A stretch of 64,000 nucleotides of DNA from Actinomycetota bacterium (GTDB lineage Bacteria; Actinomycetota; JAHEXW01): NCBI GenBank assembly GCA_025355855.1, contig JANXYU010000019.1, forward strand, positions 525 through 64,524, in the 5' to 3' direction. Each line of letters starts with the position of its first letter. The first letter of the stretch is position 1. A program made the position numbers and the translations under genes. Shown here one piece after another: positions 5,888 through 41,227 of this stretch. The notes beneath the pieces are model-generated. The model did not search any database, had not been told where the DNA came from, and saw only the letters and a list, made by a program, of their open reading frames with translations.

Positions 5888-6355
5888 GTGGATAAGAAGA
5901 AGATCGATGAACTGATCTCAATCCTTAAAAAGAATGACTTAAGCGAAGTCACGGTTGAGGAGAATGGCGTGAAGATAACGGTCCGGCAGGGCGATATCAC
6001 TATAGTCGAAGGCGGGCCTGCGGGCGTACTGCCACACGTCGGCGGACACACCCCGAATGCCAAACCCGCGATTTCCGGGGAAGATGCCGCGCTGGCCGAG
6101 CTAGAAGCCAAATACGCGACCTTGGTCTCACCGATGGTGGGGACGTTTTACCGGGCGGCGGCTCCCGGCGCTGACGTCTTCATCGAAGAGGGAGACGTTT
6201 TCGAGGTCGGTCAAACATTGTGCGTTGTGGAAGCAATGAAATTAATGAATGATATTGTCGCTGACGAAGCAGGTCGGCTCATCAAGATCGCCGTCTCCGA
6301 CGGGAGTTCCGTGCAATTCGGGCAAACACTCTTGTTCTTTGAGCCCCTGGTTTAA
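5888..6355 (+). CDS. accB: Acetyl-CoA carboxylase biotin carboxyl carrier protein
   Basis: SPMVGTFY and EAMKLMN biotinylation motif. Confidence 0.95.
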   Translation: MDKKKIDELISILKKNDLSEVTVEENGVKITVRQGDITIVEGGPAGVLPHVGGHTPNAKPAISGEDAALAELEAKYATLVSPMVGTFYRAAAPGADVFIEEGDVFEVGQTLCVVEAMKLMNDIVADEAGRLIKIAVSDGSSVQFGQTLLFFEPLV

Positions 6356-30621: not shown

Positions 30622-31395
30622 ATGGATAACTTGGCCTATAAAATCGAATTAGAAGTCTACGAAGGGCCTTTCGACCTGCTGTTAGAACTGATTCTAAAGC
30701 AGGAAGTGGATATCTATGAGGTGCCGATAGCGGCCATTACCGACGGCTATCTGAAATACATTACCAAGATGCCGGAGCTTAATCTGGATGTGACCAGTGA
30801 ATTTCTAGTCATCGCGGCAACCTTGCTGGAATTGAAATCATACGCGCTGCTGCCCGTCGACGAGGCGGAAGAGATCGCTATCATCCGCAGCGAGATGGAG
30901 ACGCGGGACAGTCTCATCGAGCACCTGATCGACTATATGACATTCCAGGGTGTGACCGTGGCGATGGCCGGGAAAGTGGAGGAACAAAGCTACCGCTATC
31001 CGCGCATCGCTCAACCGGAAGAAGACTATGCTGATCTGGCGCCGGATTTTCTGGCCGGCATTCGCCTGACTGATCTGTCGAGCCTGGCCCAAGAACTTTT
31101 GGGAACCAAGCCGATGCTGCTGGTCGATACATCGCACATGGCCTTGTACAACATATCGATTTCGGAGAAAGCGCATGATATGGTCGAACTTCTCAAGGCC
31201 AAACCAAGTGGTTCCTTCCGGGAGCTTTGCGAGCAGGCCGAAAGCAAGATCGAGAAGATCGTAGTTTTCCTTGCCTTGTTGGAGTTGTTTAAAAGAGGAG
31301 TTATCGGGGTCAGTCAGGCGCGTGTCTTCGGCGATATCCGGGTCAAATTGGTGGATGAGACGATGATTAACTGGAATAAATGGAACGAAGAATGA
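30622..31395 (+). CDS. scpA: Segregation and condensation protein A
   Basis: EGPFDLLL.LI, FLVIAATLL.LKS..LLP, FLALLEL. Confidence 0.95.
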   Translation: MDNLAYKIELEVYEGPFDLLLELILKQEVDIYEVPIAAITDGYLKYITKMPELNLDVTSEFLVIAATLLELKSYALLPVDEAEEIAIIRSEMETRDSLIEHLIDYMTFQGVTVAMAGKVEEQSYRYPRIAQPEEDYADLAPDFLAGIRLTDLSSLAQELLGTKPMLLVDTSHMALYNISISEKAHDMVELLKAKPSGSFRELCEQAESKIEKIVVFLALLELFKRGVIGVSQARVFGDIRVKLVDETMINWNKWNEE

Positions 31396-32021
31396 GCGAG
31401 GGGCAAATGGAACTTAAGTCGATACTAGAATCACTGTTATTCGTGACCGACGAGCCGCTGGCTGTCAAAAAGCTGGCAGAATTGACAGGCCGCCCAGACG
31501 CTGAGGTTAAAGAGGCCTTAACGGACCTGAAAGAAGACCTTGTCAGCCAGGGACGGGGGATTCGTCTTAAGGCGATCGCCGGCGGTTACCGGTTGTTTAC
31601 GGACACCAAAAACCGAGTGTACGTAGAGAAGCTGGTCTTGTCCTCCGACTTTCGCAGGCTGACCCAAGCGGGATTGGAAACGCTGGCTATCGTTGCTTAT
31701 CGTCAGCCGATCACGCGCGGTGAGATAGCCGGAATCAGAGGCGTCAGCGTTGATTCTGTTTTGGCGAATTTGATTGCCAAAGGTCTCGTCAAAGAGGTAG
31801 GCAAGGAAGACGTGCCCGGTCATCCGACCCTTTACGGCACCACTGAACGCTTTCTAGAAAGCTTCGGCCTCGAGGGCTTGAACGAACTTCCCGAACTTGA
31901 AGGGTTCGAACCGGACGAAGAAACCCAGCGAAAAATTAGGTTCCGCCTCGCCGGGACAACACCCGAAGCGGATATGACGGAGACCGAAGCGACCGAGCCT
32001 GACGCGCCGGCGCCCGCCTGA
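31392..32021 (+). CDS. scpB: Segregation and condensation protein B
   Basis: LETLAIVAYRQPITR.EI..IRGV, LYGTT..FL..FGL..L.ELP; ATGA overlap with scpA. Confidence 0.95.
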   Translation: MSEGQMELKSILESLLFVTDEPLAVKKLAELTGRPDAEVKEALTDLKEDLVSQGRGIRLKAIAGGYRLFTDTKNRVYVEKLVLSSDFRRLTQAGLETLAIVAYRQPITRGEIAGIRGVSVDSVLANLIAKGLVKEVGKEDVPGHPTLYGTTERFLESFGLEGLNELPELEGFEPDEETQRKIRFRLAGTTPEADMTETEATEPDAPAPA

Positions 32022-32027
32022 ACGCCT

Positions 32028-33008
32028 ATGCCGACATTCGGATTAGAGGAAGAAGTCTTTGTCGTCGAGCCCGAAAAGCCTTCTCTAAAATCTCTTTACT
32101 ACCTGTCTAAGCTGTTGTGGCGTAATCCGCGCCGGCACTATCGTTTAACCGCGTCGAATTTCAGCCGGGGTCCGGACGTCAAGCAGGCCTTGATGAGCGG
32201 CGTCGAAGTCGCGACCGAGGTCCACAACGATCCCGCCAGTCTGGTAGACGACCTTAGGGAACGACGCGGCGAACTGGCGTCCGTGGCCGAAGGCCTAATC
32301 GCGCCGATCGGTCACTTGGTCAATCTCAGCACCCCGTCAAACGTCTGCGCTCTTCAGCTGCACGTCGGGGGGGTTCCTAACATCGAAACTGTCTATCAAA
32401 ATCTCGGCCACTTCCTGCCCATCTTGACGCTCATCACGATAAACGCGCCATTTGCCGGGGGCACCTACTACGGCCAGTCGTTCAGGCTGGCCCACGGTTA
32501 TTCAATCGGGCCGTTGCGACCCGACCCGACCGACCGGTTTCAGGACATGATAATCACCAAAAGGCTGGGAACCGTGGAGCTCCGGGCCTTTGATCCGTGT
32601 TGGGACTTGGAACGCGTGCGAGTTTTGGCGCGGGCGGTGGCCGCTATCGCGGCTTTAGACAAGCCGCTGGCTTTTGACCGCGCCCTATATAACAAGGGGC
32701 GGATCGCGCTTGCCGAACGCGGTTTCGTACCAGAGTTACGTCCTTTGTATAATGAGTTGAGCTTGATTGCTGACGTCCCGGAGGAAATGTTGATCCGGAC
32801 TGCGTCAGATGAGGTCAAAGAGTTTTGCCAGGCACACGGCACTGTCGCGGCCTACAGCGCGCTGGATAACGGCTACAGAAACGGCATTTTCGCCGCCGCT
32901 CCGGTACCAGAGAATAAGGCGGCTCTTCTGAAATCAATGGCTGGCCTCGCGGGCTACTACGTGCCCAAGTTGCCTTACGTAACGTGGAAGTATCTTAAAG
33001 AGAAGTAA
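32028..33008 (+). CDS. Glutamate-cysteine ligase (GCS2)-like carboxylate-amine ligase, divergent
   Basis: FGLEEE, VEVAT, LQLHVG, NAPF, S.R, GTVELRAFD. Confidence 0.7.
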   Translation: MPTFGLEEEVFVVEPEKPSLKSLYYLSKLLWRNPRRHYRLTASNFSRGPDVKQALMSGVEVATEVHNDPASLVDDLRERRGELASVAEGLIAPIGHLVNLSTPSNVCALQLHVGGVPNIETVYQNLGHFLPILTLITINAPFAGGTYYGQSFRLAHGYSIGPLRPDPTDRFQDMIITKRLGTVELRAFDPCWDLERVRVLARAVAAIAALDKPLAFDRALYNKGRIALAERGFVPELRPLYNELSLIADVPEEMLIRTASDEVKEFCQAHGTVAAYSALDNGYRNGIFAAAPVPENKAALLKSMAGLAGYYVPKLPYVTWKYLKEK

Positions 33009-33009
33009 A

Positions 33010-33177
33010 GGCAAGGCCCTGGATTATAGGGATTATAAGGAGTATAGAGAGCATGAAAAACATTGTTTTTGCGAGGCTGGGTTTTGGCCGCGGCAATCTC
33101 AGCGAGGCGGGTGCCGTCCAATGAAACCAACCACAATGATCCCCATAATCCTTATACTCTCAATAATCCTCCTTGCC
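33010..33177. repeat. Long imperfect inverted repeat built of 9-mer units, right arm inside psd N-terminus
   Basis: 33010-33054 (GGCAAGG…GGATTATAG GGATTATAA GGAGTATAG AGAGCAT) complementary to 33136-33177 (ATGATCCCCATAATCCTTATACTCTCAATAATCCTCCTTGCC). Confidence 0.75.
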
Positions 33178-33825
33178 GTCCTTTACCTGCTCAACCGTTT
33201 TGTCTGGTTCTACCGCGACCCTGTCCGGCAGGCCGACGCGACCGGACGCGTTGTCATCAGCCCCGCCGACGGCCAGGTCGTGTACATTAAGAAATTTGTT
33301 GACGGCGCTGTGGCTAGCGAGAAACTCGGCCGGCAAATCAAACTTGACGAGCTTACCGACCTAAAATTGCCGGAACACAGCCAAGGCTGGATAATAGGCA
33401 TCTACATGTCGCCGTTTGATGTTCATTTCAACTACGCGCCTTTGCCCGGCAAGATTAAATCGATTGCTTACACGAAGGCCAGCGCGAACCTGCCTATGGT
33501 TGACCTTTGGGAATATATTCGGTATAGTTTTTTGCGCCAAGCCGTTGACAACTTTGCCGAGCGTTTTCACCTGACCAACGAGCGTAACAGCCTCTTGGTT
33601 GAGGGCCCGGGCTTCGACTACGCGGTTATCGAGATTGCCGACAAGTTCGTCAACAAAATCTCTTGCTACGTGCGAGAAGACATGACTGTCAAGGCAGGCG
33701 CCAAGGTCGGGTTTATCGACCGCGGCAGTCAGGTTGACCTCATAATATACAAGACTGACATCGACTTCCAAGTCAAGACGGGACAGCAGGTATATGGCGC
33801 GAAGACGATTCTCGCAACTTACTAG
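33121..33825 (+). CDS. psd: Phosphatidylserine decarboxylase-like pyruvoyl enzyme (divergent)
   Basis: FYRDP.R, SPADG, YMSPFDVH, NERN, RGSQVD self-cleavage motif. Confidence 0.8.
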   Translation: MKPTTMIPIILILSIILLAVLYLLNRFVWFYRDPVRQADATGRVVISPADGQVVYIKKFVDGAVASEKLGRQIKLDELTDLKLPEHSQGWIIGIYMSPFDVHFNYAPLPGKIKSIAYTKASANLPMVDLWEYIRYSFLRQAVDNFAERFHLTNERNSLLVEGPGFDYAVIEIADKFVNKISCYVREDMTVKAGAKVGFIDRGSQVDLIIYKTDIDFQVKTGQQVYGAKTILATY

Positions 33826-35026
33826 TTTCTTCTGGCAGAACGCCGCTGTCATCGGCATTACCATGTCGACGACCCTTATATTCGCGTTCGCGACCCTCTA
33901 TTTACGCGAAGAAATGCATGTTTCCAACTTCATGGTCGGCGTAGCGGTCAGCCTGTCGCATATTATATCCGTCGTATTTTCACCCCTGGTAGGGACTTTG
34001 TCGGATCGGGCGCAAACGCCATGGGGACGCCGCCGTCCGTTCTTGGTCGGCGGAGCTATAGCGGCGGGGATATTCTTGTTCATCATGCCGCACGTCCTGA
34101 ACTACTGGCTTTTCCTGCTTGTTGTGAGCTTGTTCTTTGTTTTCAGCATCGGCTATCAGATTCCGTTCTACGCGTTGATACCGGAGATCGCTCCGGAAGG
34201 ACAGCGCGGTGTCTATTCGACATTTACCGGGTTGCTGCGCCTGGCCGGGGCTGGCATAGTGATGGGCGTCGGCGGTTGGTTGTGGGCTAAATCGCCCGCG
34301 TGGCCTTTCAATGTAACGGCGATCGCCGTGATGTTGACGGCGTTTGTGACCGCCGCCGCGATTCCCGAAGAGCCAAAGCGGCTGTTGCCGCATGACGAGA
34401 GAATCGACATCTACCGAAACTTCCGGCTGTATCTAAAGGAATTAGTCGCCCAGCATCAGATATTCCTGTTCTTCGGGGCGCAGTTCTTTTGGTGGATGGG
34501 CCTCGGCGCCATCCTGCCTTTCGCGACAATCATGCTCAAGGAACTATATGGAGTTAACGTGTCTGAGCTGATGAAGGTCACCCCGTTGGTTTTGGTGGGC
34601 GGCGGCCTTCTAGTCGGGACAATTGTCGGGGCGGGTGTTTTGGGCGATCGGTGGGGTCAAAGACGCGTCATCATGCTGGGCTTAAGTGTGTTGGTTGTTG
34701 GTTGCCTGCTGGCGATCGCCGGCCGCAGCTTGCCGATCGTCTATCTGGCGGCTTTCACTGTGGTTATCGGAGCGTCGCCCCTATTTACGGCGCCGTTCGC
34801 GATGCTGGCCGACCTTATTCCGCGGGGCCGGGAAGGCGAATTCTACGGTTTGGATACCATATCCATTACTCTTAGCCAGGTACCCGCCGCTTTACTAGGC
34901 GGGGCAATCATTGACGGTTTTGGGTATCCGGCGATATTTGCGTTCGTGTCTGTCTGCGCGGTTGTTGCCATAGTTCTGATGTGGCGTGTCGGATTACCGA
35001 AAAAGCGCCGGCCGAGCGTGTCTTAA
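33794..35026 (+). CDS. MFS transporter
   Basis: ~12 TM; GTLSDR…WGRRRPF and GVLGDRWGQRR loops. Confidence 0.9.
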   Translation: MARRRFSQLTSFFWQNAAVIGITMSTTLIFAFATLYLREEMHVSNFMVGVAVSLSHIISVVFSPLVGTLSDRAQTPWGRRRPFLVGGAIAAGIFLFIMPHVLNYWLFLLVVSLFFVFSIGYQIPFYALIPEIAPEGQRGVYSTFTGLLRLAGAGIVMGVGGWLWAKSPAWPFNVTAIAVMLTAFVTAAAIPEEPKRLLPHDERIDIYRNFRLYLKELVAQHQIFLFFGAQFFWWMGLGAILPFATIMLKELYGVNVSELMKVTPLVLVGGGLLVGTIVGAGVLGDRWGQRRVIMLGLSVLVVGCLLAIAGRSLPIVYLAAFTVVIGASPLFTAPFAMLADLIPRGREGEFYGLDTISITLSQVPAALLGGAIIDGFGYPAIFAFVSVCAVVAIVLMWRVGLPKKRRPSVS

Positions 35027-35463: not shown

Positions 35464-37953
35464 ATGAAGGCTGTCATTATGGCCGGGGGAGAGGGTACTC
35501 GCCTAAGGCCATTGACCAGTAACCAACCCAAACCGATGGTGCCGGTTATCAACCGGCCCGTGATGGAATACATCATCGAGCTCCTAAAGAGCCACGGCAT
35601 CACGGACATCATCGCTACACTGCAGTTCTTGCCCGCGCTGGTGCGCAATTATTTCGGCGACGGCCAGGACCTGGGCGTTAACATGGCTTACAGTACTGAG
35701 GACAAACCGCTCGGCACAGCCGGCAGCGTCAAGAAGGTCGAGCAGTATTTAGACAGCACTTTTGTGGTTATTTCGGGCGACGCAATGACCGATATAGATT
35801 TGACAGCGGCCGTTGCGTTCCACAAAAAGAATCGCGCCCTGGCGACACTGGTATTAAAAAGCGTACCTAATCCTCTGCAGTTCGGCGTGGTTATTACCGA
35901 CGACGACGGCCGGATTCAGAGGTTCGTCGAGAAACCGAACTGGAGCCAAGTCTTCAGCGACACGGTCAATACCGGGATTTATATCCTGGAACCGGCGATC
36001 TTTAACCACATCCCAGCCGACCAGTCATTTGATTTCTCTAAAGATTTGTTTCCGAAACTGCTCAAAGGCCGCAAGCGCTTATTCGGCTACGTCGCCGACG
36101 GCTACTGGCAGGATATCGGCAGTATCGAACAATATATGCAAGTAACCCAGGACCTTTTGCGAGGAGCGGCTGTTTTTCAGCCGGATGGGTTCAAGTTGGG
36201 CCGCAGCGTTTGGTTAGACGGCGGCGCGCAAGTCGATCCGCAAGCCAGCCTGCGCGGACCGATCGTTATCGGCAAAAACGCCAAGATAGAGGCGGGAGCA
36301 AGAATCAGACCGTACTCAGTCATCGGCAGCAACACAATCGTCAAAACCGGAGCTTTCGTCAGCCGAGCGGTAGTCGGCGACAACTGTTATGTCGGGGCCG
36401 GGGCTGAATTGCGCGGTTGCGCCATCGGACGGACCTGTGACATCAAACGTAACGCGCGCATCGGTGAAGGTGTGGCCATCGGCGACAACTGCAGTATCGG
36501 CAACGATGCCGTGATCAGCCCGAATGTACGCATCTATCCATTTAAGACCGTTGAGCCGGGGGCCGCGGTTAGCGCCTCGATAATCTGGGAAACGCGCGGG
36601 GCGCGGTCACTATTCGGACGCCAGGGTATTGCGGGTTTGATCAACATCGATATTACGCCGCGGATGGCGATGCGCATCGCCGGCGCCTATGGTTCCGCGA
36701 TACCGGCCGGTTCGACGGTAACCGTCGGCAGCGATCAAGTGAGGTCTTGCGACATAATGCGCCAGGCAGTCATAGCCGGCCTTAACTCTACGGGCGTTAA
36801 TGTCTGGGACTTAGACAACATGCCCGCGGGCGTCAGCCGGTTTGCCATTATTAACGATCATCTGGCCGGCGGCGTGGATATAAGACTTTCTCGTGACGAC
36901 GCGCAGAGCCTCGAGTTCGACTTTTTCGATTCCAACGGTATTAATATCAGCGAGGACATGCAGGGTCGGATTGAAAAGAATTTCTATCGCGACGATTTCC
37001 GGCGGGCCTTTCATAACGAGATGGGCGATGTAGTCTATCCTCCTCACACGGCCGAGAATTACATTAACAACGCGCTGCACAAACTAGACGGGGAATTGAT
37101 TCGCAAAGCGCGATTGAAGTTGGTTGTCGATTACGGTTTTGGGCGGTCGATCAAAGTAGGGCCGGAGCTTCTCGGACGCCTAGGCGTTGGCGTTATCGCC
37201 TTAAACGGTATGGGCGCGGCTCGTCCGGCGCTTGATAGAGACGAAATCGAGCGATCTTTGCGGCAAGTCTCTCAGAGCGTACGCGCGCTAAAAGCTGACT
37301 TGGGTGTAATCATCGACGGCCCGAGCGAACGCGTCATATTCGTCGACGAGAAAGGTCAGAGAATCGGACAGTCGGCTGCGTTGATAATGATGCTCAAACT
37401 GGTCTGCGAAGACAAGGGAGCGGGTACAGTGGTGTTGCCGATGAGTGTTACTCAGGCAGCTGACGATATCGCCGCTCTCTATGGTTGCGAAGTCAAACGA
37501 GTGCGCATCAGCCCGGCCGCGCTCATGGAAGCCGCGCTAGACGAACACGTTATTTTCGCCGGCGCCGAGGGCGGCGGCTATATCTTCCCCGACATGGTTC
37601 CGGCTTACGCGGCGTTAACCAGCCTCGGAAAACTTTTGGAGATCATGGCGCGCAAACGCCGGCCGCTTAGCGTATTAGCCGGCCAGGTACCCCGTTATCA
37701 CGTTCAGCATCGTCAGGAGGTCTGCGCCTGGGACCGCAAAGGTTATGTCATGCGGCAGATGATGGACGCGACCCGTGGCCGCAAGGTCGAGCTGATCGAC
37801 GGTATCAAAGTATACACACCGACGGGTTGGGCTTTAATGCTGCCTGACCCCGTCGAACCGGTTTGCCATATCTATGTCGAGGGCGACACGGAGCAACACG
37901 CGGAGGCCATCGCGTCGCGTTACGCCGCCCTGATTCGCAAACACCGGGCATAA
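35464..37953 (+). CDS. Mannose-1-phosphate guanylyltransferase with hexapeptide repeats and degenerate phosphohexomutase domain
   Basis: MAGGEGTRLRPLT…PKP, EKP, hexapeptide repeats, LFG..GI.G..N. Confidence 0.9.
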   Translation: MKAVIMAGGEGTRLRPLTSNQPKPMVPVINRPVMEYIIELLKSHGITDIIATLQFLPALVRNYFGDGQDLGVNMAYSTEDKPLGTAGSVKKVEQYLDSTFVVISGDAMTDIDLTAAVAFHKKNRALATLVLKSVPNPLQFGVVITDDDGRIQRFVEKPNWSQVFSDTVNTGIYILEPAIFNHIPADQSFDFSKDLFPKLLKGRKRLFGYVADGYWQDIGSIEQYMQVTQDLLRGAAVFQPDGFKLGRSVWLDGGAQVDPQASLRGPIVIGKNAKIEAGARIRPYSVIGSNTIVKTGAFVSRAVVGDNCYVGAGAELRGCAIGRTCDIKRNARIGEGVAIGDNCSIGNDAVISPNVRIYPFKTVEPGAAVSASIIWETRGARSLFGRQGIAGLINIDITPRMAMRIAGAYGSAIPAGSTVTVGSDQVRSCDIMRQAVIAGLNSTGVNVWDLDNMPAGVSRFAIINDHLAGGVDIRLSRDDAQSLEFDFFDSNGINISEDMQGRIEKNFYRDDFRRAFHNEMGDVVYPPHTAENYINNALHKLDGELIRKARLKLVVDYGFGRSIKVGPELLGRLGVGVIALNGMGAARPALDRDEIERSLRQVSQSVRALKADLGVIIDGPSERVIFVDEKGQRIGQSAALIMMLKLVCEDKGAGTVVLPMSVTQAADDIAALYGCEVKRVRISPAALMEAALDEHVIFAGAEGGGYIFPDMVPAYAALTSLGKLLEIMARKRRPLSVLAGQVPRYHVQHRQEVCAWDRKGYVMRQMMDATRGRKVELIDGIKVYTPTGWALMLPDPVEPVCHIYVEGDTEQHAEAIASRYAALIRKHRA

Positions 37954-37967
37954 AAGGAATGATCTAG

Positions 37968-39365
37968 ATGCTTAAATTCGGCACTGACGGCTGGAGAGCC
38001 ATAATCGCCGAGGAATTCACATTTCACAACCTGCGCTTGGTCACTAGGGCGGTGGCTGATTACCTCAAAAGTAAGACGGACGCGCCAACGGTCGTGATTG
38101 GTTACGACAACCGTTTCATGGGCGCGGAATACGCCGCCGCTGTCGCCGAGACAATGGCCGCTTGCGGTGTGCGCGCCATCCTGGGAGACCAGGCATACCC
38201 GACGCCCGTCGTTGCGTATGCGGTGCGAGAGTTCAAGGCCACTGGCGGCGTCATGCTTACCGCCAGCCATAATCCATATTATTACAACGGCTTTAAGTTC
38301 ATCCCCGATTACGCGGGACCGGCCACTGGCGAGATTACCTCCGCGATCGAGCGCAACATCGCGAGTCTTACGGGAGGAGCTCCGGCGCCGCGGGCTGAGG
38401 AACGGGTCGACATTGCCATAACGACGCTGGATTCCGCCTATCGCGTCCACCTTCTCGACTTTATTGACACCAAATCAATTCGCGCGGCGAAAATATCGGC
38501 CGGAATCGATCCCTATTATGGAGCTGGCCTGAACCTTATGCCCGCGCTGGCCCGGGAGGCCGGTTTGGCCGCCACCGTTATTCACGATTCAATCGATCCT
38601 CTCTTCGGCGGCACATTACCCGACCCATCCGAGGCGAATTTGACCGAACTGAGAAGCTTGGTGAAAGAGAATGGTCTGGATATGGGTTTGGCTCTGGACG
38701 GCGACGCCGATCGGTTCGGAGTCATCACGAGCGACGGGCGCTATCTAACCCCTAACCAGGTCGTGGCGATTATCCTGCTTCATATGGTTAAAAACCGGGG
38801 CGCCCAAGGCGCGGCAGTTCGTACTGTCGCCACAACGCACTTAATCGACGCGGTCGCGGCCGCCTACAATATCGAGGTCGTCGAAACACCGGTAGGATTT
38901 AAATATGTCGGAGCCGTCATGCGGCAACGTTCGGTCATAATCGGCGGCGAAGAAAGCGGAGGCTTAAGTGTACTCGGTCATATACCGGAAAAGGATGGCC
39001 TCTTGGCCAACCTATTGCTAGCTGAAATGGTCGCGAGGGAGGGCCGGTCGCTGGCCGACATATGGGATGGCATCCGAGCTGACTTTGGCGACTATTTCAA
39101 TACCCGGTTGGACATCGAATATCCCCAGACCAAGATGGCCGCTTTACTAAAAGGTCTAGCTTCAGCGCCGCCCAAAGTACTGGCCGGGCTGAATGTAACC
39201 GGCGTGAATCGTACCGATGGCGTTAAATTATTGTTGGCAGGCGATGCTTGGCTGCTGGTTCGTCCTTCGGGAACCGAGCCGTTGATCCGTGCTTATATCG
39301 AAGCTAAATCTCATAAGAAATTGATCGCATTGGAAAGCGCGGTGCGGGAGATGCTCCAAAAATGA
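37968..39365 (+). CDS. Phosphoglucomutase/phosphomannomutase
   Basis: FGTDGWR, TASHNP, DGDADR, GGEESGG, RPSGTEP. Confidence 0.95.
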   Translation: MLKFGTDGWRAIIAEEFTFHNLRLVTRAVADYLKSKTDAPTVVIGYDNRFMGAEYAAAVAETMAACGVRAILGDQAYPTPVVAYAVREFKATGGVMLTASHNPYYYNGFKFIPDYAGPATGEITSAIERNIASLTGGAPAPRAEERVDIAITTLDSAYRVHLLDFIDTKSIRAAKISAGIDPYYGAGLNLMPALAREAGLAATVIHDSIDPLFGGTLPDPSEANLTELRSLVKENGLDMGLALDGDADRFGVITSDGRYLTPNQVVAIILLHMVKNRGAQGAAVRTVATTHLIDAVAAAYNIEVVETPVGFKYVGAVMRQRSVIIGGEESGGLSVLGHIPEKDGLLANLLLAEMVAREGRSLADIWDGIRADFGDYFNTRLDIEYPQTKMAALLKGLASAPPKVLAGLNVTGVNRTDGVKLLLAGDAWLLVRPSGTEPLIRAYIEAKSHKKLIALESAVREMLQK

Positions 39366-41227
39366 TAGAGCGCCGCCCGCCTCGTAAGCTGACATTTAGT
39401 AAACTAACCGGTGGACTAGTATTGTTGATCATCTCATCCTTCGCATTGTCCGTCCACGGCCTTACGGCTTTCGCGTTTGCCGATTACGCCAACACCTACA
39501 AAAAGATTCACTACGGCGTAAGTGTTTATGGCCAGGACCTAACCGGCCTATCTGCTCATGATGCTCAGGCTCAACTTGAGCCCAAGGTAACTGCTGCGGT
39601 TAAGAAGAATCTGACAATCAAAGACAAAGGCCGGCAGTGGCCGGTCGAACCCGTTTTCGCCAAACCCAAACCCGACACGGCGGCTGGCGTCGCGCTGGCG
39701 TATCACGCCGGCCGAGCAGGCGGTATTTTAACACAGCTTAAAGATCGCGCTTGGCTATACGTCAAACCGATAGACCTGACCATTCCAACAGCCATGGTCG
39801 ACGGCTACGCGATCATAACCGCTGGCAAGGTCGCCTCTGTTATAGACAAACCGGCGGCGGACGCGACCGTTGAAATAAAAGGGCAGACCGCGACGGTTCG
39901 GCGCGCCAAGAATGGCTGGGAGGTTAAACAAGGGGCGCTCGCGGAGCGCATCAAAACACGCTTAGCTGATTTCTCGACCCGGACGATTAGCGTGCCGCAG
40001 GGTGTAGCCCTGGTGAAGGTGCATGATGACGACGCCGACGCGGCACGCGCGGTGGCTCTGAAAATGATGCGTGCCCCGATTGATTACACGATAAACAACA
40101 AAAGTTACACGATAGAAAAGGACAAGATAGGCGCTTTGATCGGCTTCAAGCCTGAGGTAAAGAAGAAGCGGCAAGGCGGTCGGGCGGTAGCTGACACGGT
40201 TCTGACCGCTGTGATAGACCGGGCCAAACTAGAAAAGTATTTTGCGCCTCTGCGTGACGAGTTCGAGATAAAACCGGTCAACGCGCGATTCGAGGCCGCT
40301 GAGGGCAGCGTGACAATAGTGCCAGGCGTAAACGGCCTGGTGATCGATCTCGACGCAGCGGTGGCCGATCTACGCAAAGTTGCCCTGGCGTCCGCCCCGC
40401 GCCATGCCGACCTGAAAATGAAACCGGTCGAGCCGGAGATCTCAACTGCCAAAGCCGAGGGCATGGGAATCAAGGAACGAGTCAGCGTGCACACAGAGTA
40501 TTTTGATTACACCGCCAACCGATCGACGAATATCGGCAAGCTGGCCGACGCTCTTAACGATACTCTGGTGGCGCCGGGAGAAACCTGGTCTATCAACGCG
40601 GCTACCGGACCGCGTACGGCCGCGATGGGCTATACGGAGGCGCCGGTCATCGTCAACGGCCAGCTATCGCCGGACATCGGCGGGGGCATCTGCAACGTCT
40701 CAACCACCTTTTTCAACACCGCGTTTTTCGGCGGTTATGAGATCGTCGAGAGATATCCGCACGACTTCTATATCAGCCATTATCCAGACGGCCGTGACGC
40801 CAGTATTTACTACGACGGCGGCATGGATTTCAAATTCAAGAACGATACGGCTTATTACATTTTGATTAAGACGGATCACAGCGATTCTTCCGTAACCATA
40901 GCCTTCTACAGTACGAAGACCGATGTCGAGGTTTCTTATACGGATACCGGCTTTACAAACATCGTGCCTTACGGGATGGTTTACAAAGACGAACCGACGA
41001 TTCCGACGGGCTACGAAGCAGACGCTGACATGGGTTATGGCGTCGATGGACGGGACATCACGGTCTCACGCACCGTAAAAAAGGGTGGGCAAGTGACGCG
41101 CCAAGACAAATTCGCCAGTCACTACGAACCCAAACAACGGCTGATTCTAAAAGGAACAGGCCCGGCACTAGCGCCTGGAACGCCTCCGCCACCCGGGGTG
41201 CGGCCGTTCGGACAGACGCCTCAATAG
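39362..41227 (+). CDS. VanW family protein with peptidoglycan-binding and G5-like regions
   Basis: N-terminal TM; R.TNI, PGETWS.N, GGGICNVSTT, ERYPH, GRDA, DFKFKN. Confidence 0.88.
   Translation: MIERRPPRKLTFSKLTGGLVLLIISSFALSVHGLTAFAFADYANTYKKIHYGVSVYGQDLTGLSAHDAQAQLEPKVTAAVKKNLTIKDKGRQWPVEPVFAKPKPDTAAGVALAYHAGRAGGILTQLKDRAWLYVKPIDLTIPTAMVDGYAIITAGKVASVIDKPAADATVEIKGQTATVRRAKNGWEVKQGALAERIKTRLADFSTRTISVPQGVALVKVHDDDADAARAVALKMMRAPIDYTINNKSYTIEKDKIGALIGFKPEVKKKRQGGRAVADTVLTAVIDRAKLEKYFAPLRDEFEIKPVNARFEAAEGSVTIVPGVNGLVIDLDAAVADLRKVALASAPRHADLKMKPVEPEISTAKAEGMGIKERVSVHTEYFDYTANRSTNIGKLADALNDTLVAPGETWSINAATGPRTAAMGYTEAPVIVNGQLSPDIGGGICNVSTTFFNTAFFGGYEIVERYPHDFYISHYPDGRDASIYYDGGMDFKFKNDTAYYILIKTDHSDSSVTIAFYSTKTDVEVSYTDTGFTNIVPYGMVYKDEPTIPTGYEADADMGYGVDGRDITVSRTVKKGGQVTRQDKFASHYEPKQRLILKGTGPALAPGTPPPPGVRPFGQTPQ

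Follow-up and report, generated by a model that had tools for sequence, protein, structure and literature searches.

Psd-family proteins are usually viewed as the second half of one fixed route, in which CDP-diacylglycerol (CDP-DAG) is converted to phosphatidylserine (PS) by PssA, and PS is converted to phosphatidylethanolamine (PE) by the phosphatidylserine decarboxylase Psd. We analyzed a stretch of 64,000 nucleotides (nt; hereafter, the window) from an Actinomycetota bacterium (assembly GCA_025355855.1, contig JANXYU010000019.1, positions 525 to 64,524), in which a gene encoding a Psd-family protein is preceded by a gene encoding a compact ligase with a predicted GCS2/YbdK fold and followed by a gene encoding a transporter of the major facilitator superfamily (MFS). 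A sequence-only reading of this DNA had proposed that the three genes constitute a module for an amino-lipid or amide pathway, in which the ligase would attach an amino acid to a lipid or an acyl carboxylate, the pyruvoyl enzyme would decarboxylate it, and the MFS protein would move the substrate or the product. Our analysis partly supports this idea. The ligase and Psd genes were found to be a conserved unit that is mutually exclusive with pssA in the samples searched, and the MFS gene was linked to them only within the window's class. In the consulted part of a 2026 review of prokaryotic membrane biogenesis, the PssA-Psd route is the only one given (PMC13691511).

The locus most closely resembles the short-type psd-pssA operon of Actinomycetota and other bacteria, in that a membrane-anchored pyruvoyl proenzyme with D-x-H and G-S motifs lies beside a presumed substrate-making gene. 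However, the partner in the window is a soluble GCS2-fold ligase, ATP-dependent by its fold, instead of a CDP-alcohol transferase, and the genome has no recognizable pssA; furthermore, the window Psd is 23-28% identical to pssA-linked Psds, carries an insert of ~19-20 residues as well as clade-specific substitutions, and scores below every NCBIfam cut-off for Psd/Asd. The ligase shares its fold and the conserved acid, His and Arg residues with its closest known relatives, YbdK/GCS2 proteins and glutamate-cysteine ligases (GCL; 1r8g, 1tt4, 2gwc and 1v4g), implying ATP-dependent acyl-phosphate chemistry; in GCS2/GCL enzymes, a carboxylate is activated as an acyl phosphate and then passed to an amine. 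On the other hand, it is ~16-17% identical to YbdK and ~40 residues shorter, has aromatic/basic N-proximal and C-terminal segments of its own, and is linked to Psd. A similar arrangement occurs in three Actinomycetota genomes lacking pssA (G161, G093 and G201), where an ATP-grasp ligase of 403-409 amino acids (aa) lies directly upstream of a membrane Psd. These pairs also place an acyl-phosphate-forming ligase before Psd and presumably follow the same logic, whereas the ligase belongs to an unrelated superfamily (weak ATPgrasp_Ter/CPSase matches, 'carbamoyl phosphate synthase-like'), the Psds are short and canonical-looking in their motifs, without the insert, and glycosyltransferase genes (GT2/GT1) are found nearby.

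The CoaB-CoaC pair is alike in outline, in that an amino acid is ligated with nucleotide energy and then decarboxylated to leave an amine-type end; however, the folds are unrelated, a flavin is used instead of a pyruvoyl group, and the amino acid is attached via its alpha-amine, a linkage that a pyruvoyl enzyme could not use. The Psd family itself is not restricted to PS. PsiD (tryptophan) and an arginine decarboxylase of A. oryzae, fungal amino-acid decarboxylases of this family according to the consulted parts of two reports (PMC11929908, PMC12904898), share the fold and the pyruvoyl family with the window Psd, but they are long, soluble proteins acting on free amino acids, whereas the window Psd is short, bacterial and anchored by a transmembrane (TM) segment. 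Full-text searches, the coverage of which excluded subscription journals, found no literature in which a gene of the Psd family is connected to a ligase of the GCS2 or ATP-grasp type. The enzyme families are familiar, as is the logic of two paired genes, but this partner of Psd has not been described, nor, very probably, has the product.

Conservation of the ligase-Psd pair and its relation to pssA

We assembled 102 loci containing a homolog of the window ligase (91 distinct ligases), comprising 14 from species genomes (L004-L017), 8 from genomes of relatives and 80 from metagenomes. The window's own locus (L020) and L018 (28% identity over 147 residues, with no tblastn match at 1e-5) were left out of this set. 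A locus was regarded as testable when its contig extended ≥900 nt past the ligase or when Psd was seen, which gave 84 testable loci and 18 that were not judgeable. Psd was found downstream of the ligase and on the same strand in 69 of the 84 testable loci, and was absent from 15. The distance between the ends of the ligase and Psd high-scoring segment pairs (HSPs) was ≤265 nt in 63 of the 69, and one gene intervened in the other 6 (599-1126 nt). Since the HSP of Psd begins only near residue 25, the real gap is in many cases close to zero or an overlap, as in L069, with the ligase ending at 5981 and Psd starting at 5978. These results indicate that the ligase-Psd pair is a conserved unit, the frames of which often overlap or nearly abut.

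The same linkage was seen at the level of genomes. All five genomes of the window's class contain the ligase. Among 301 evenly sampled Actinomycetota genomes, it was found in 9, all of 1.3-1.8 Mb, while a Psd-family gene was found in 44. Eight of the nine ligase genomes hold Psd, and the exception is G004, a 91% complete genome whose contig ends 266 nt away from the ligase. In six of these eight, the ligase and Psd genes are direct neighbors, and in G001 they lie at two contig ends in compatible orientation; the eighth genome is taken up below. A pssA match of ≥97 bits was obtained in 30 of the 44 Psd genomes (above the cut-off in 26), always within ~200 nt of Psd. None of these 30 genomes holds the ligase, and the pssA model gives no more than ~35 bits in any of the 9 ligase genomes. 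Note that the pssA tallies include ten unpublished genomes (G021, G049, G081, G087, G119, G147, G173, G225, G238 and G267), none of which is among the 30 strong-pssA or the 9 ligase genomes. Psd in the Actinomycetota sample was found beside pssA in 30 genomes, with the ligase in 8 and beside the ATP-grasp ligase in 3; the other three are G145, G237 and G005, the last being an unpublished genome on which the count of 44 and the sixth remaining case partly rest. G145 (L034:1755-3062) encodes a 435-aa Psd form that adjoins an enoyl-CoA hydratase, and G237 (L036:740-2605) a 621-aa protein with PSDC (PF12588) and PSD domains, both without pssA.

In a sample of 81 Caldisericota genomes around the genome of L009, the ligase was found in 10 and a match to PF02666, the Psd model, in the same 10, the genes being adjacent in each; the other 71 genomes had neither, and no pssA was found at E ≤ 1e-12 in any of the 81. 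Over both phylum samples, the ligase-linked kind of Psd was found in 18 genomes, and the ligase is present in every one of them; the insert that marks this Psd was checked in part of these genomes. The ligase and Psd have been gained and lost together, and in the samples searched the pair and pssA exclude each other.

A source of PS was sought in the window's genome, which is 91% complete. It contains cdsA just past the end of the window and two PF01066 CDP-alcohol transferases, namely pgsA (166 bits) and a pgsA/ClsA-like protein (99.9/97.6 bits). Where the sequence-only reading had noted no pssA next to Psd, the genome-wide search recognized none either; TIGR00473 (cut-off 107) gave only 26 and 20 bits with the PF01066 pair, and no PLD-family (PLDc_2) protein was found in this genome. 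A second CDP-alcohol transferase is also present in 4 of 4 other actinobacterial carriers searched. At E ≤ 1e-25, homologs of the window genome's second transferase occur in 14 of the 301 genomes, 7 of which are Psd-free, and three genomes with both the ligase and Psd (G022, G239 and G291) have no match, so that this transferase is not specifically tied to Psd; a cardiolipin-synthase role fits better than a PS-synthase role. Among the Caldisericota carriers, five genomes (G305, G326, G343, G348 and G382) all contain cdsA and none contains a PF01066 protein. Given this combination, these carriers must use CDP-DAG via some unrecognized enzyme. G305 encodes two tandem PLD-domain proteins of 627-629 aa (L136:1192-3081 and L138:1162-3045) with no NCBIfam match, in addition to a NucT-like nuclease.

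Properties of the ligase and the Psd-like decarboxylase

Neither the GCS2 model PF04107 nor any other Pfam model matched the window ligase at E ≤ 0.01, and TIGR02050 (YbdK family) gave 33.1 bits, below its cut-off of 176.4; some ligase homologs match PF04107 weakly at 21-26 bits. Nevertheless, 31 residues are invariant in an alignment of 24 homologs, including the acid, His and Arg residues expected to bind metal and ATP (E7/E8/E9, E60, H112 and R179-L-x-T-x-E184-x-R186-x-x-D189), and the H112 and R179-D189 regions align to 1tt4 by profile, as a match at the HMM level. The claim that this protein, compact at 326 aa, keeps the GCS2 motifs was therefore confirmed, the residues named earlier being invariant in the 24 homologs. 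The AlphaFold2 (AF2) model of the ligase (pLDDT 94.9, pTM 0.93) gave YbdK 1r8g as its best Foldseek match (E 1.6e-11, TM score 0.62-0.66), with 1tt4 also found, and the later matches were glutamate-cysteine ligases, GshF, glutamine synthetases and Dop; GmaS (7cqn/9qur) is among the fold matches as well. A Pup-ligase/Dop-type role was judged unlikely, Dop being a distant fold match. Among 1.84 billion representatives, the family comprised 57 clusters (50% identity) at E ≤ 1e-3 and 36 at E ≤ 1e-30, beyond which there was a weak tail of ordinary GCS2 proteins. Sequence comparison thus points to a sharply bounded, separate subfamily, and the invariant residues together with the model indicate that its members would be intact ATP-dependent enzymes of the carboxylate-amine type.

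Family members are nearly all 326-335 aa long and come from metagenome-assembled genomes labelled Actinomycetota, Coriobacteriia, Armatimonadetes and others; their names in the ESM Atlas are automatic YbdK/GCS2 labels only. The metagenome-assembled genome behind L006, which shows the pair, is associated with the name Slackia heliotrinireducens. Fused or longer forms were sought at E ≤ 0.001 without a match, a result of little weight; P0141 (514 aa) and P0143 (431 aa) carry extra N-terminal sequence that no Pfam model matches. A role of the ligase as a maturation factor of Psd, as PanZ is for PanD, was also considered and rejected as the main idea, because the full catalytic set is kept and the ligase is present in Psd-free genomes.

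The window Psd matched PF02666 over residues 25-231 (E 3.3e-37; 128.5 bits versus a cut-off of 22), whereas all 14 matched NCBIfam Psd/Asd models stayed below their cut-offs (best, NF003685 with 119.5 versus 183 bits). It is closest to the short membrane Psd/Asd type and not to the long soluble forms. As the sequence-only reading had it, the DVH, NERN and GS motifs are kept; D100-V-H102, N153-E-R-N156 and R201-G-S-Q-V-D206, including G202-S203, are invariant in 24 Psds, and in a wider set of 63 ligase-linked Psds NERN is retained in 51. According to the consulted part of a structural study of E. coli PSD, the conserved Gly-Ser pair is the cleavage site, the catalytic residues are D90/D142-H144-S254, Tyr-137, Ser-166 and the backbone of Val-167 bind the lipid phosphate, and His-144 recognizes the carboxylate (PMC7952604). 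The roles of the window residues are predictions transferred from that enzyme by family motif. A TM helix is predicted at the N-terminus (Kyte-Doolittle 19-residue mean of 3.04 from residue 6; AF2 helix 3-30), and this hydrophobic N-terminus is kept across the 24-sequence alignment. With the AF2 model, Foldseek retrieved E. coli PSD (7cnx/6l06) and, more weakly, PsiD (8x4q/8zia) and the A. oryzae arginine decarboxylase (9jer/9jf5).

The insert that had been noticed in this Psd is real and linked to the ligase, although its length is ~19-20 residues instead of the ~25 first given. It was present in 7 of 7 ligase-linked Psds (G001 and G003 of the window's class, G022, G106, G239, G291, and L009 as the one of the ten Caldisericota carriers that was checked) and in 0 of 7 other actinobacterial Psds aligned, of which five are pssA-linked and two ATP-grasp-linked. 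The same division was seen for the substitutions DVHFNY, IADKFVNKI and RGSQ, which are common to the 7 ligase-linked Psds and found in none of the other 7, in agreement with the earlier remark that IADKFVNKI is a divergent segment. In the region of the insert, N123, P125, M126, D128, E131, Y132, L138, R139, F145 and H150 are invariant in 24 Psds. The expectation that Psds with this insert would occur together with the ligase across genomes was also borne out, as the pair is syntenic across phyla and the core PMxDxxEY is found in 62 of the 63 ligase-linked Psds spanning the region; DVHxN[YF], RGSQ and IAD[KR][FY]V are each found in 62-63 of the 63 (RGSQ, 62). The insert is nearly invariant in sequence across the 24 homologs, yet it is the lowest-confidence part of the AF2 model, with residues 125-149 below a pLDDT of 50 as the sole part so low and the core above 85. 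Such a segment would fit one that becomes ordered only on a partner, a substrate or the membrane. Prediction of a complex between the ligase and Psd (residues 25-234) from alignments gave a score of 0.00 in a run without controls, a value that speaks neither for nor against an interaction.

Locus layout and neighboring genes

The positions of the features are summarized in Table 1. All three genes found after scpB by the sequence-only reading are ORFs on the same strand. The ligase starts 6 nt past the scpB stop, 112 nt separate it from the Psd gene, and the MFS gene overlaps the 3' end of the Psd gene by 32 nt. In a promoter and terminator scan, terminator-like sites were no commoner than in shuffled sequences, and the fold of the 112-nt spacer had a z of 0.87. 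The scpA-scpB genes are preceded by trpS, and the order trpS-scpA-scpB-ligase is also found in L004, L019, L021-L023 and L041-L044; scpA-scpB as upstream neighbors are limited to the window's class. Downstream of the MFS gene are a HIT-family gene, a nucleotidyltransferase (NTP-transferase)/phosphomutase fusion, a phosphomutase and a VanW-type gene. The fusion (window 35464-37953; 829 aa) combines a sugar-1-phosphate nucleotidyltransferase, a left-handed beta-helix and a phosphoglucomutase/phosphomannomutase (PGM/PMM), and is followed by a separate PGM/PMM (37968-39365) and a VanW/peptidoglycan (PG)-binding protein (39362-41227).

The MFS protein matched MFS_1 (E 1.4e-37, 129.9 bits) and MFS_2 (E 3.6e-24, 85.5 bits), both above cut-off. 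None of 25 NCBIfam subfamilies matched it above cut-off (best, GPH with 58.9 versus 231), and sequence matches in the PDB were weak (SLC45A4 and GlcP). In G001, G002 and G003, which include a different family of the same order (MFS identity 56%), the MFS gene abuts or overlaps Psd, and the annotated start is supported because the matches begin at query residue 1. No MFS homolog was found at E ≤ 1e-20 in G004 or G022, and none was seen beside the pair outside the class. The 14 species-genome loci have none (L004 is cut); among the 80 metagenome loci, only L041 has one, and its sequence is the same as that of G003. Of the three-gene module proposed earlier, the ligase-Psd pair is consequently the part that is kept, and the MFS gene is a lineage-specific accessory. 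Judging only from its position, the protein may flip the product across the membrane, export it, or bring in a precursor.

Elsewhere, the pair lies mostly among housekeeping genes (scpAB, purF, rpoD and trpS), and the neighbors depend on the lineage, with purF and a small membrane protein in Coriobacteriia-type loci, and dnaG-rpoD or a polysaccharide deacetylase in Psd-less clades. The protein between purF and the ligase is hydrophobic, ~148 aa long and without a Pfam match (L016:1793-2239, L008:4799-5248 and 18 further Coriobacteriia-type loci). In 24 loci the pair is followed downstream by a gene for a GT2 glycosyltransferase of ~220 aa, which shares its strand in 21 of them and is confined to one large metagenome clade; in 16 loci it is preceded by a small protein of 140-170 aa with an N-terminal TM segment, a charged coiled-coil-like tail and no Pfam match. 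Polysaccharide deacetylase genes (PF01522) precede the ligase, directly or at a short distance, in L007, L011, L013, L014 and L054, mainly in the Psd-less ligase clades. Furthermore, a gamma-glutamyltranspeptidase gene (L105:3292-4887) lies directly upstream of a Psd-less ligase, a single case that hints at gamma-glutamyl chemistry.

Table 1. Coordinates of the features in the window and in the compared loci.
Feature	Position	Strand	Description
scpA-scpB	window 30622..32021	+	PF02616, PF04079; scpB = 31380-32021
Ligase gene	window 32028..33008	+	326 aa; ORF; compact divergent GCS2/YbdK-fold carboxylate-amine ligase, predicted ATP-dependent
Psd gene	window 33121..33825	+	234 aa; ORF; Psd-family pyruvoyl decarboxylase proenzyme, ligase-linked clade
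Predicted TM anchor of Psd	window 33136..33192	+	residues 6-24; Kyte-Doolittle and AF2 helix
Clade-specific insert region of Psd	window 33487..33570	+	residues 123-150; alignments
G202-S203 of Psd	window 33724..33729	+	predicted self-cleavage site, origin of the pyruvoyl group
MFS transporter gene	window 33794..35026	+	410 aa; lineage-specific third gene
ATP-grasp ligase and Psd	L035:797-2879 (G161); L037:953-3009 (G093); G201:C511:6473-8441		
GT2 after the pair	L069:7296-7964; 23 further loci		
Small TM/coiled-coil protein	L068:1955-2383; L069:6762-7283; 14 further loci		
PF01522 deacetylase directly upstream of the ligase	L007:5168-5848; L011:1476-2159; L013:2373-3089		

A proposed pathway and its alternatives

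We tentatively favor, at somewhat less than an even chance, a reading in which the ligase and Psd are a two-step unit that ligates and then decarboxylates, replacing PssA plus Psd. In the first step, a soluble or peripheral ligase would join an amino acid to a membrane-bound acceptor with ATP, leaving the alpha-amino and alpha-carboxyl groups free. The chemistry most natural for the fold would be a side-chain amide, such as gamma-glutamyl or beta-aspartyl, formed on an acceptor amine; alternatively, a side-chain amine (Lys, Orn or Dap type) may be joined to an acceptor carboxylate. In the second step, the membrane-anchored Psd would form a Schiff base with the free amine and strip the alpha-carboxylate, as expected from the chemistry of its family. 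The product would have a primary-amine head group that gives the surface a neutral or positive charge, much as PE does. In the window's class, a probable role of the MFS protein, which appears translationally coupled to Psd, is flipping or export of this product, or uptake of a precursor. Pyruvoyl decarboxylases require that both the alpha-amine and the alpha-carboxylate of the substrate be free, and they use a Schiff-base mechanism, as stated in the consulted part of the E. coli PSD study (PMC7952604); the chemistries of the ligase and Psd are compatible if the amino acid is attached through its side chain. The ligase is placed before the decarboxylase because it occurs without Psd while the reverse was not seen, and a membrane lipid is favored as the acceptor given that Psd is anchored, that the carriers have small genomes in which the pair keeps a housekeeping context, and that the ligase occupies the place held elsewhere by pssA. 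The order of the steps, the amino acid, the acceptor and the MFS role are all inferred. The earlier idea that the ligase supplies the Psd substrate gains from the finding that no Psd genome in the Actinomycetota sample holds both pssA and the ligase and from the ATP-grasp ligases upstream of Psd in three pssA-less genomes, while the chemistry is still inferred. By analogy, this independent recruitment of an ATP-grasp ligase beside Psd supports the logic of a ligase feeding Psd and leans to ordinary carboxylate-amine chemistry.

Several observations weigh against this two-step reading. The Psd-less loci are mostly in three well-supported clades plus two singletons in a quick IQ-TREE maximum-likelihood tree. 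One singleton, L073, may be a false negative, with just 1105 nt of sequence downstream and closest relatives that have Psd ~1.1 kb downstream. L042, in which the ligase is 69% identical, has no Psd within 3.4 kb downstream; an ORF that follows this ligase (L042:6061-6879) was judged spurious, being Arg/Ser/Val-rich with no Pfam match. In G022, the ligase and Psd are on separate contigs and not adjacent, and the genomes of L007, L010, L011 and L012 (G301-G304; 0.8-1.3 Mb, completeness not given) hold the ligase with no PF02666 match. Because Psd-free genomes hold the ligase, its product must be of use without the decarboxylase in some lineages. The ligase had been suggested as possibly membrane-associated, but no TM segment is predicted, which bears on its access to a membrane acceptor, and the aromatic/basic segments, though conserved, have only a moderate amphipathic moment (0.13-0.45); judging from its sequence, membrane binding is possible. 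The recurrent neighbors (GT2 in 24 loci, deacetylases, and sugar-nucleotide enzymes and VanW in the window) suggest glycans no less than lipids, and the second CDP-alcohol transferase in Actinomycetota and the PLD-domain proteins of G305 are candidates for a non-canonical PS synthase. Lastly, related genomes are not independent, so that the co-occurrence counts describe a pattern instead of a statistical test and overstate the number of independent events.

The glycan-type neighbors suggest that the same ligation and decarboxylation may act on a sugar acceptor, such as an amino sugar or uronic acid of a lipid-linked glycan, a glycolipid, a wall polymer or lipid II, and would thereby give an amine-ended envelope decoration. 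This is a serious rival, although we consider it unlikely. The GT2 genes with their small TM/coiled-coil partner, the PF01522 deacetylases, which free a sugar amine, the NTP-transferase/PGM fusion, PGM/PMM and VanW/PG-binding protein just downstream in the window, and the GT2 or GT1 neighbors of the analogous ATP-grasp-Psd pairs would all be accounted for. However, the pair is mostly amid housekeeping genes and not in polysaccharide clusters, the deacetylases are mainly in clades without Psd, the GT2 genes are confined to one clade, and the carriers are small genomes of 1.3-2.2 Mb. It is also conceivable, if rather improbable, that Psd performs ordinary PE synthesis on PS from an unrecognized synthase and that a YbdK-like housekeeping ligase merely travels along. 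Retention of the family catalytic residues and the membrane anchor in Psd would agree with this, as would the finding that the window's genome and the other four actinobacterial carriers have a second CDP-alcohol transferase whose specificity is uncertain, the unrecognized CDP-DAG user implied for the Caldisericota carriers, and the existence of the ligase without Psd. Against it, the ligase and Psd genes come and go together in two phyla, often with overlapping or abutting frames, the Psd insert and substitutions are found only alongside the ligase, and in other genomes lacking pssA the ligase's place beside Psd is filled by an independent ATP-grasp ligase; the second transferase, moreover, scores just 20 bits on the pssA model, is Psd-free in half of the genomes that hold it, and is not matched in three ligase-Psd genomes.

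The order of the steps could also be reversed, with Psd decarboxylating a free amino acid and the ligase then amidating the amine with a carboxylate, for example the gamma-carboxyl of Glu, to give a soluble amide that the MFS protein exports or for which it imports a precursor. The soluble amino-acid decarboxylases among the Foldseek matches of Psd (PsiD and the A. oryzae enzyme), the amine-acylating GS/GCL-superfamily enzymes among those of the ligase (GmaS), the lack of a membrane segment in the ligase and the gamma-glutamyltranspeptidase upstream of the L105 ligase are consistent with this order, and a Psd-less ligase could draw amines from other sources. However, the N-terminal TM anchor of Psd is conserved, its nearest type is the short membrane Psd/Asd, and the insert-type Psd was never seen without the ligase while the ligase was seen without Psd, the opposite of the simplest prediction for a decarboxylase that acts first. 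We therefore regard the reverse order as quite improbable.

If ligation precedes decarboxylation on a membrane lipid, the pair may allow a membrane amino-lipid to be made without pssA in a range of lineages that includes at least Actinomycetota, Caldisericota and the Armatimonadota type, a broader proposal that we regard as doubtful at present. One candidate form is a new lipid class with a beta-alanyl or gamma-aminobutyryl amide, or an acyl-diamine, as its head group, arising via side-chain ligation and pyruvoyl decarboxylation. The other candidate, which is more radical, is a GCS2-fold, ATP-driven PS synthase that would activate phosphatidate in place of a carboxylate and feed the PE pathway without PssA.

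The carriers are anaerobes of several phyla, mostly uncultured and with small genomes, and in them the Psd clade described here goes with a ligase and not with PssA. If the proposed pathway is true, the automatic labels "phosphatidylserine decarboxylase" and "YbdK" hide a different head-group chemistry, and genome-based calls of PE as present or absent in these lineages would be wrong. The pair would also offer a testable approach to the amino-, phospho- and glycolipids that reports on relatives routinely list as unidentified. For Adlercreutzia species, for example, the consulted part of one report lists unidentified phospholipids, glycolipids and one aminolipid, and no PE (PMC8549271). Under the broader amino-lipid proposal, a ligase combined with a Psd-family enzyme would be a general, repeatedly invented route to amine head groups, of which the ATP-grasp-Psd pairs would be a second instance.

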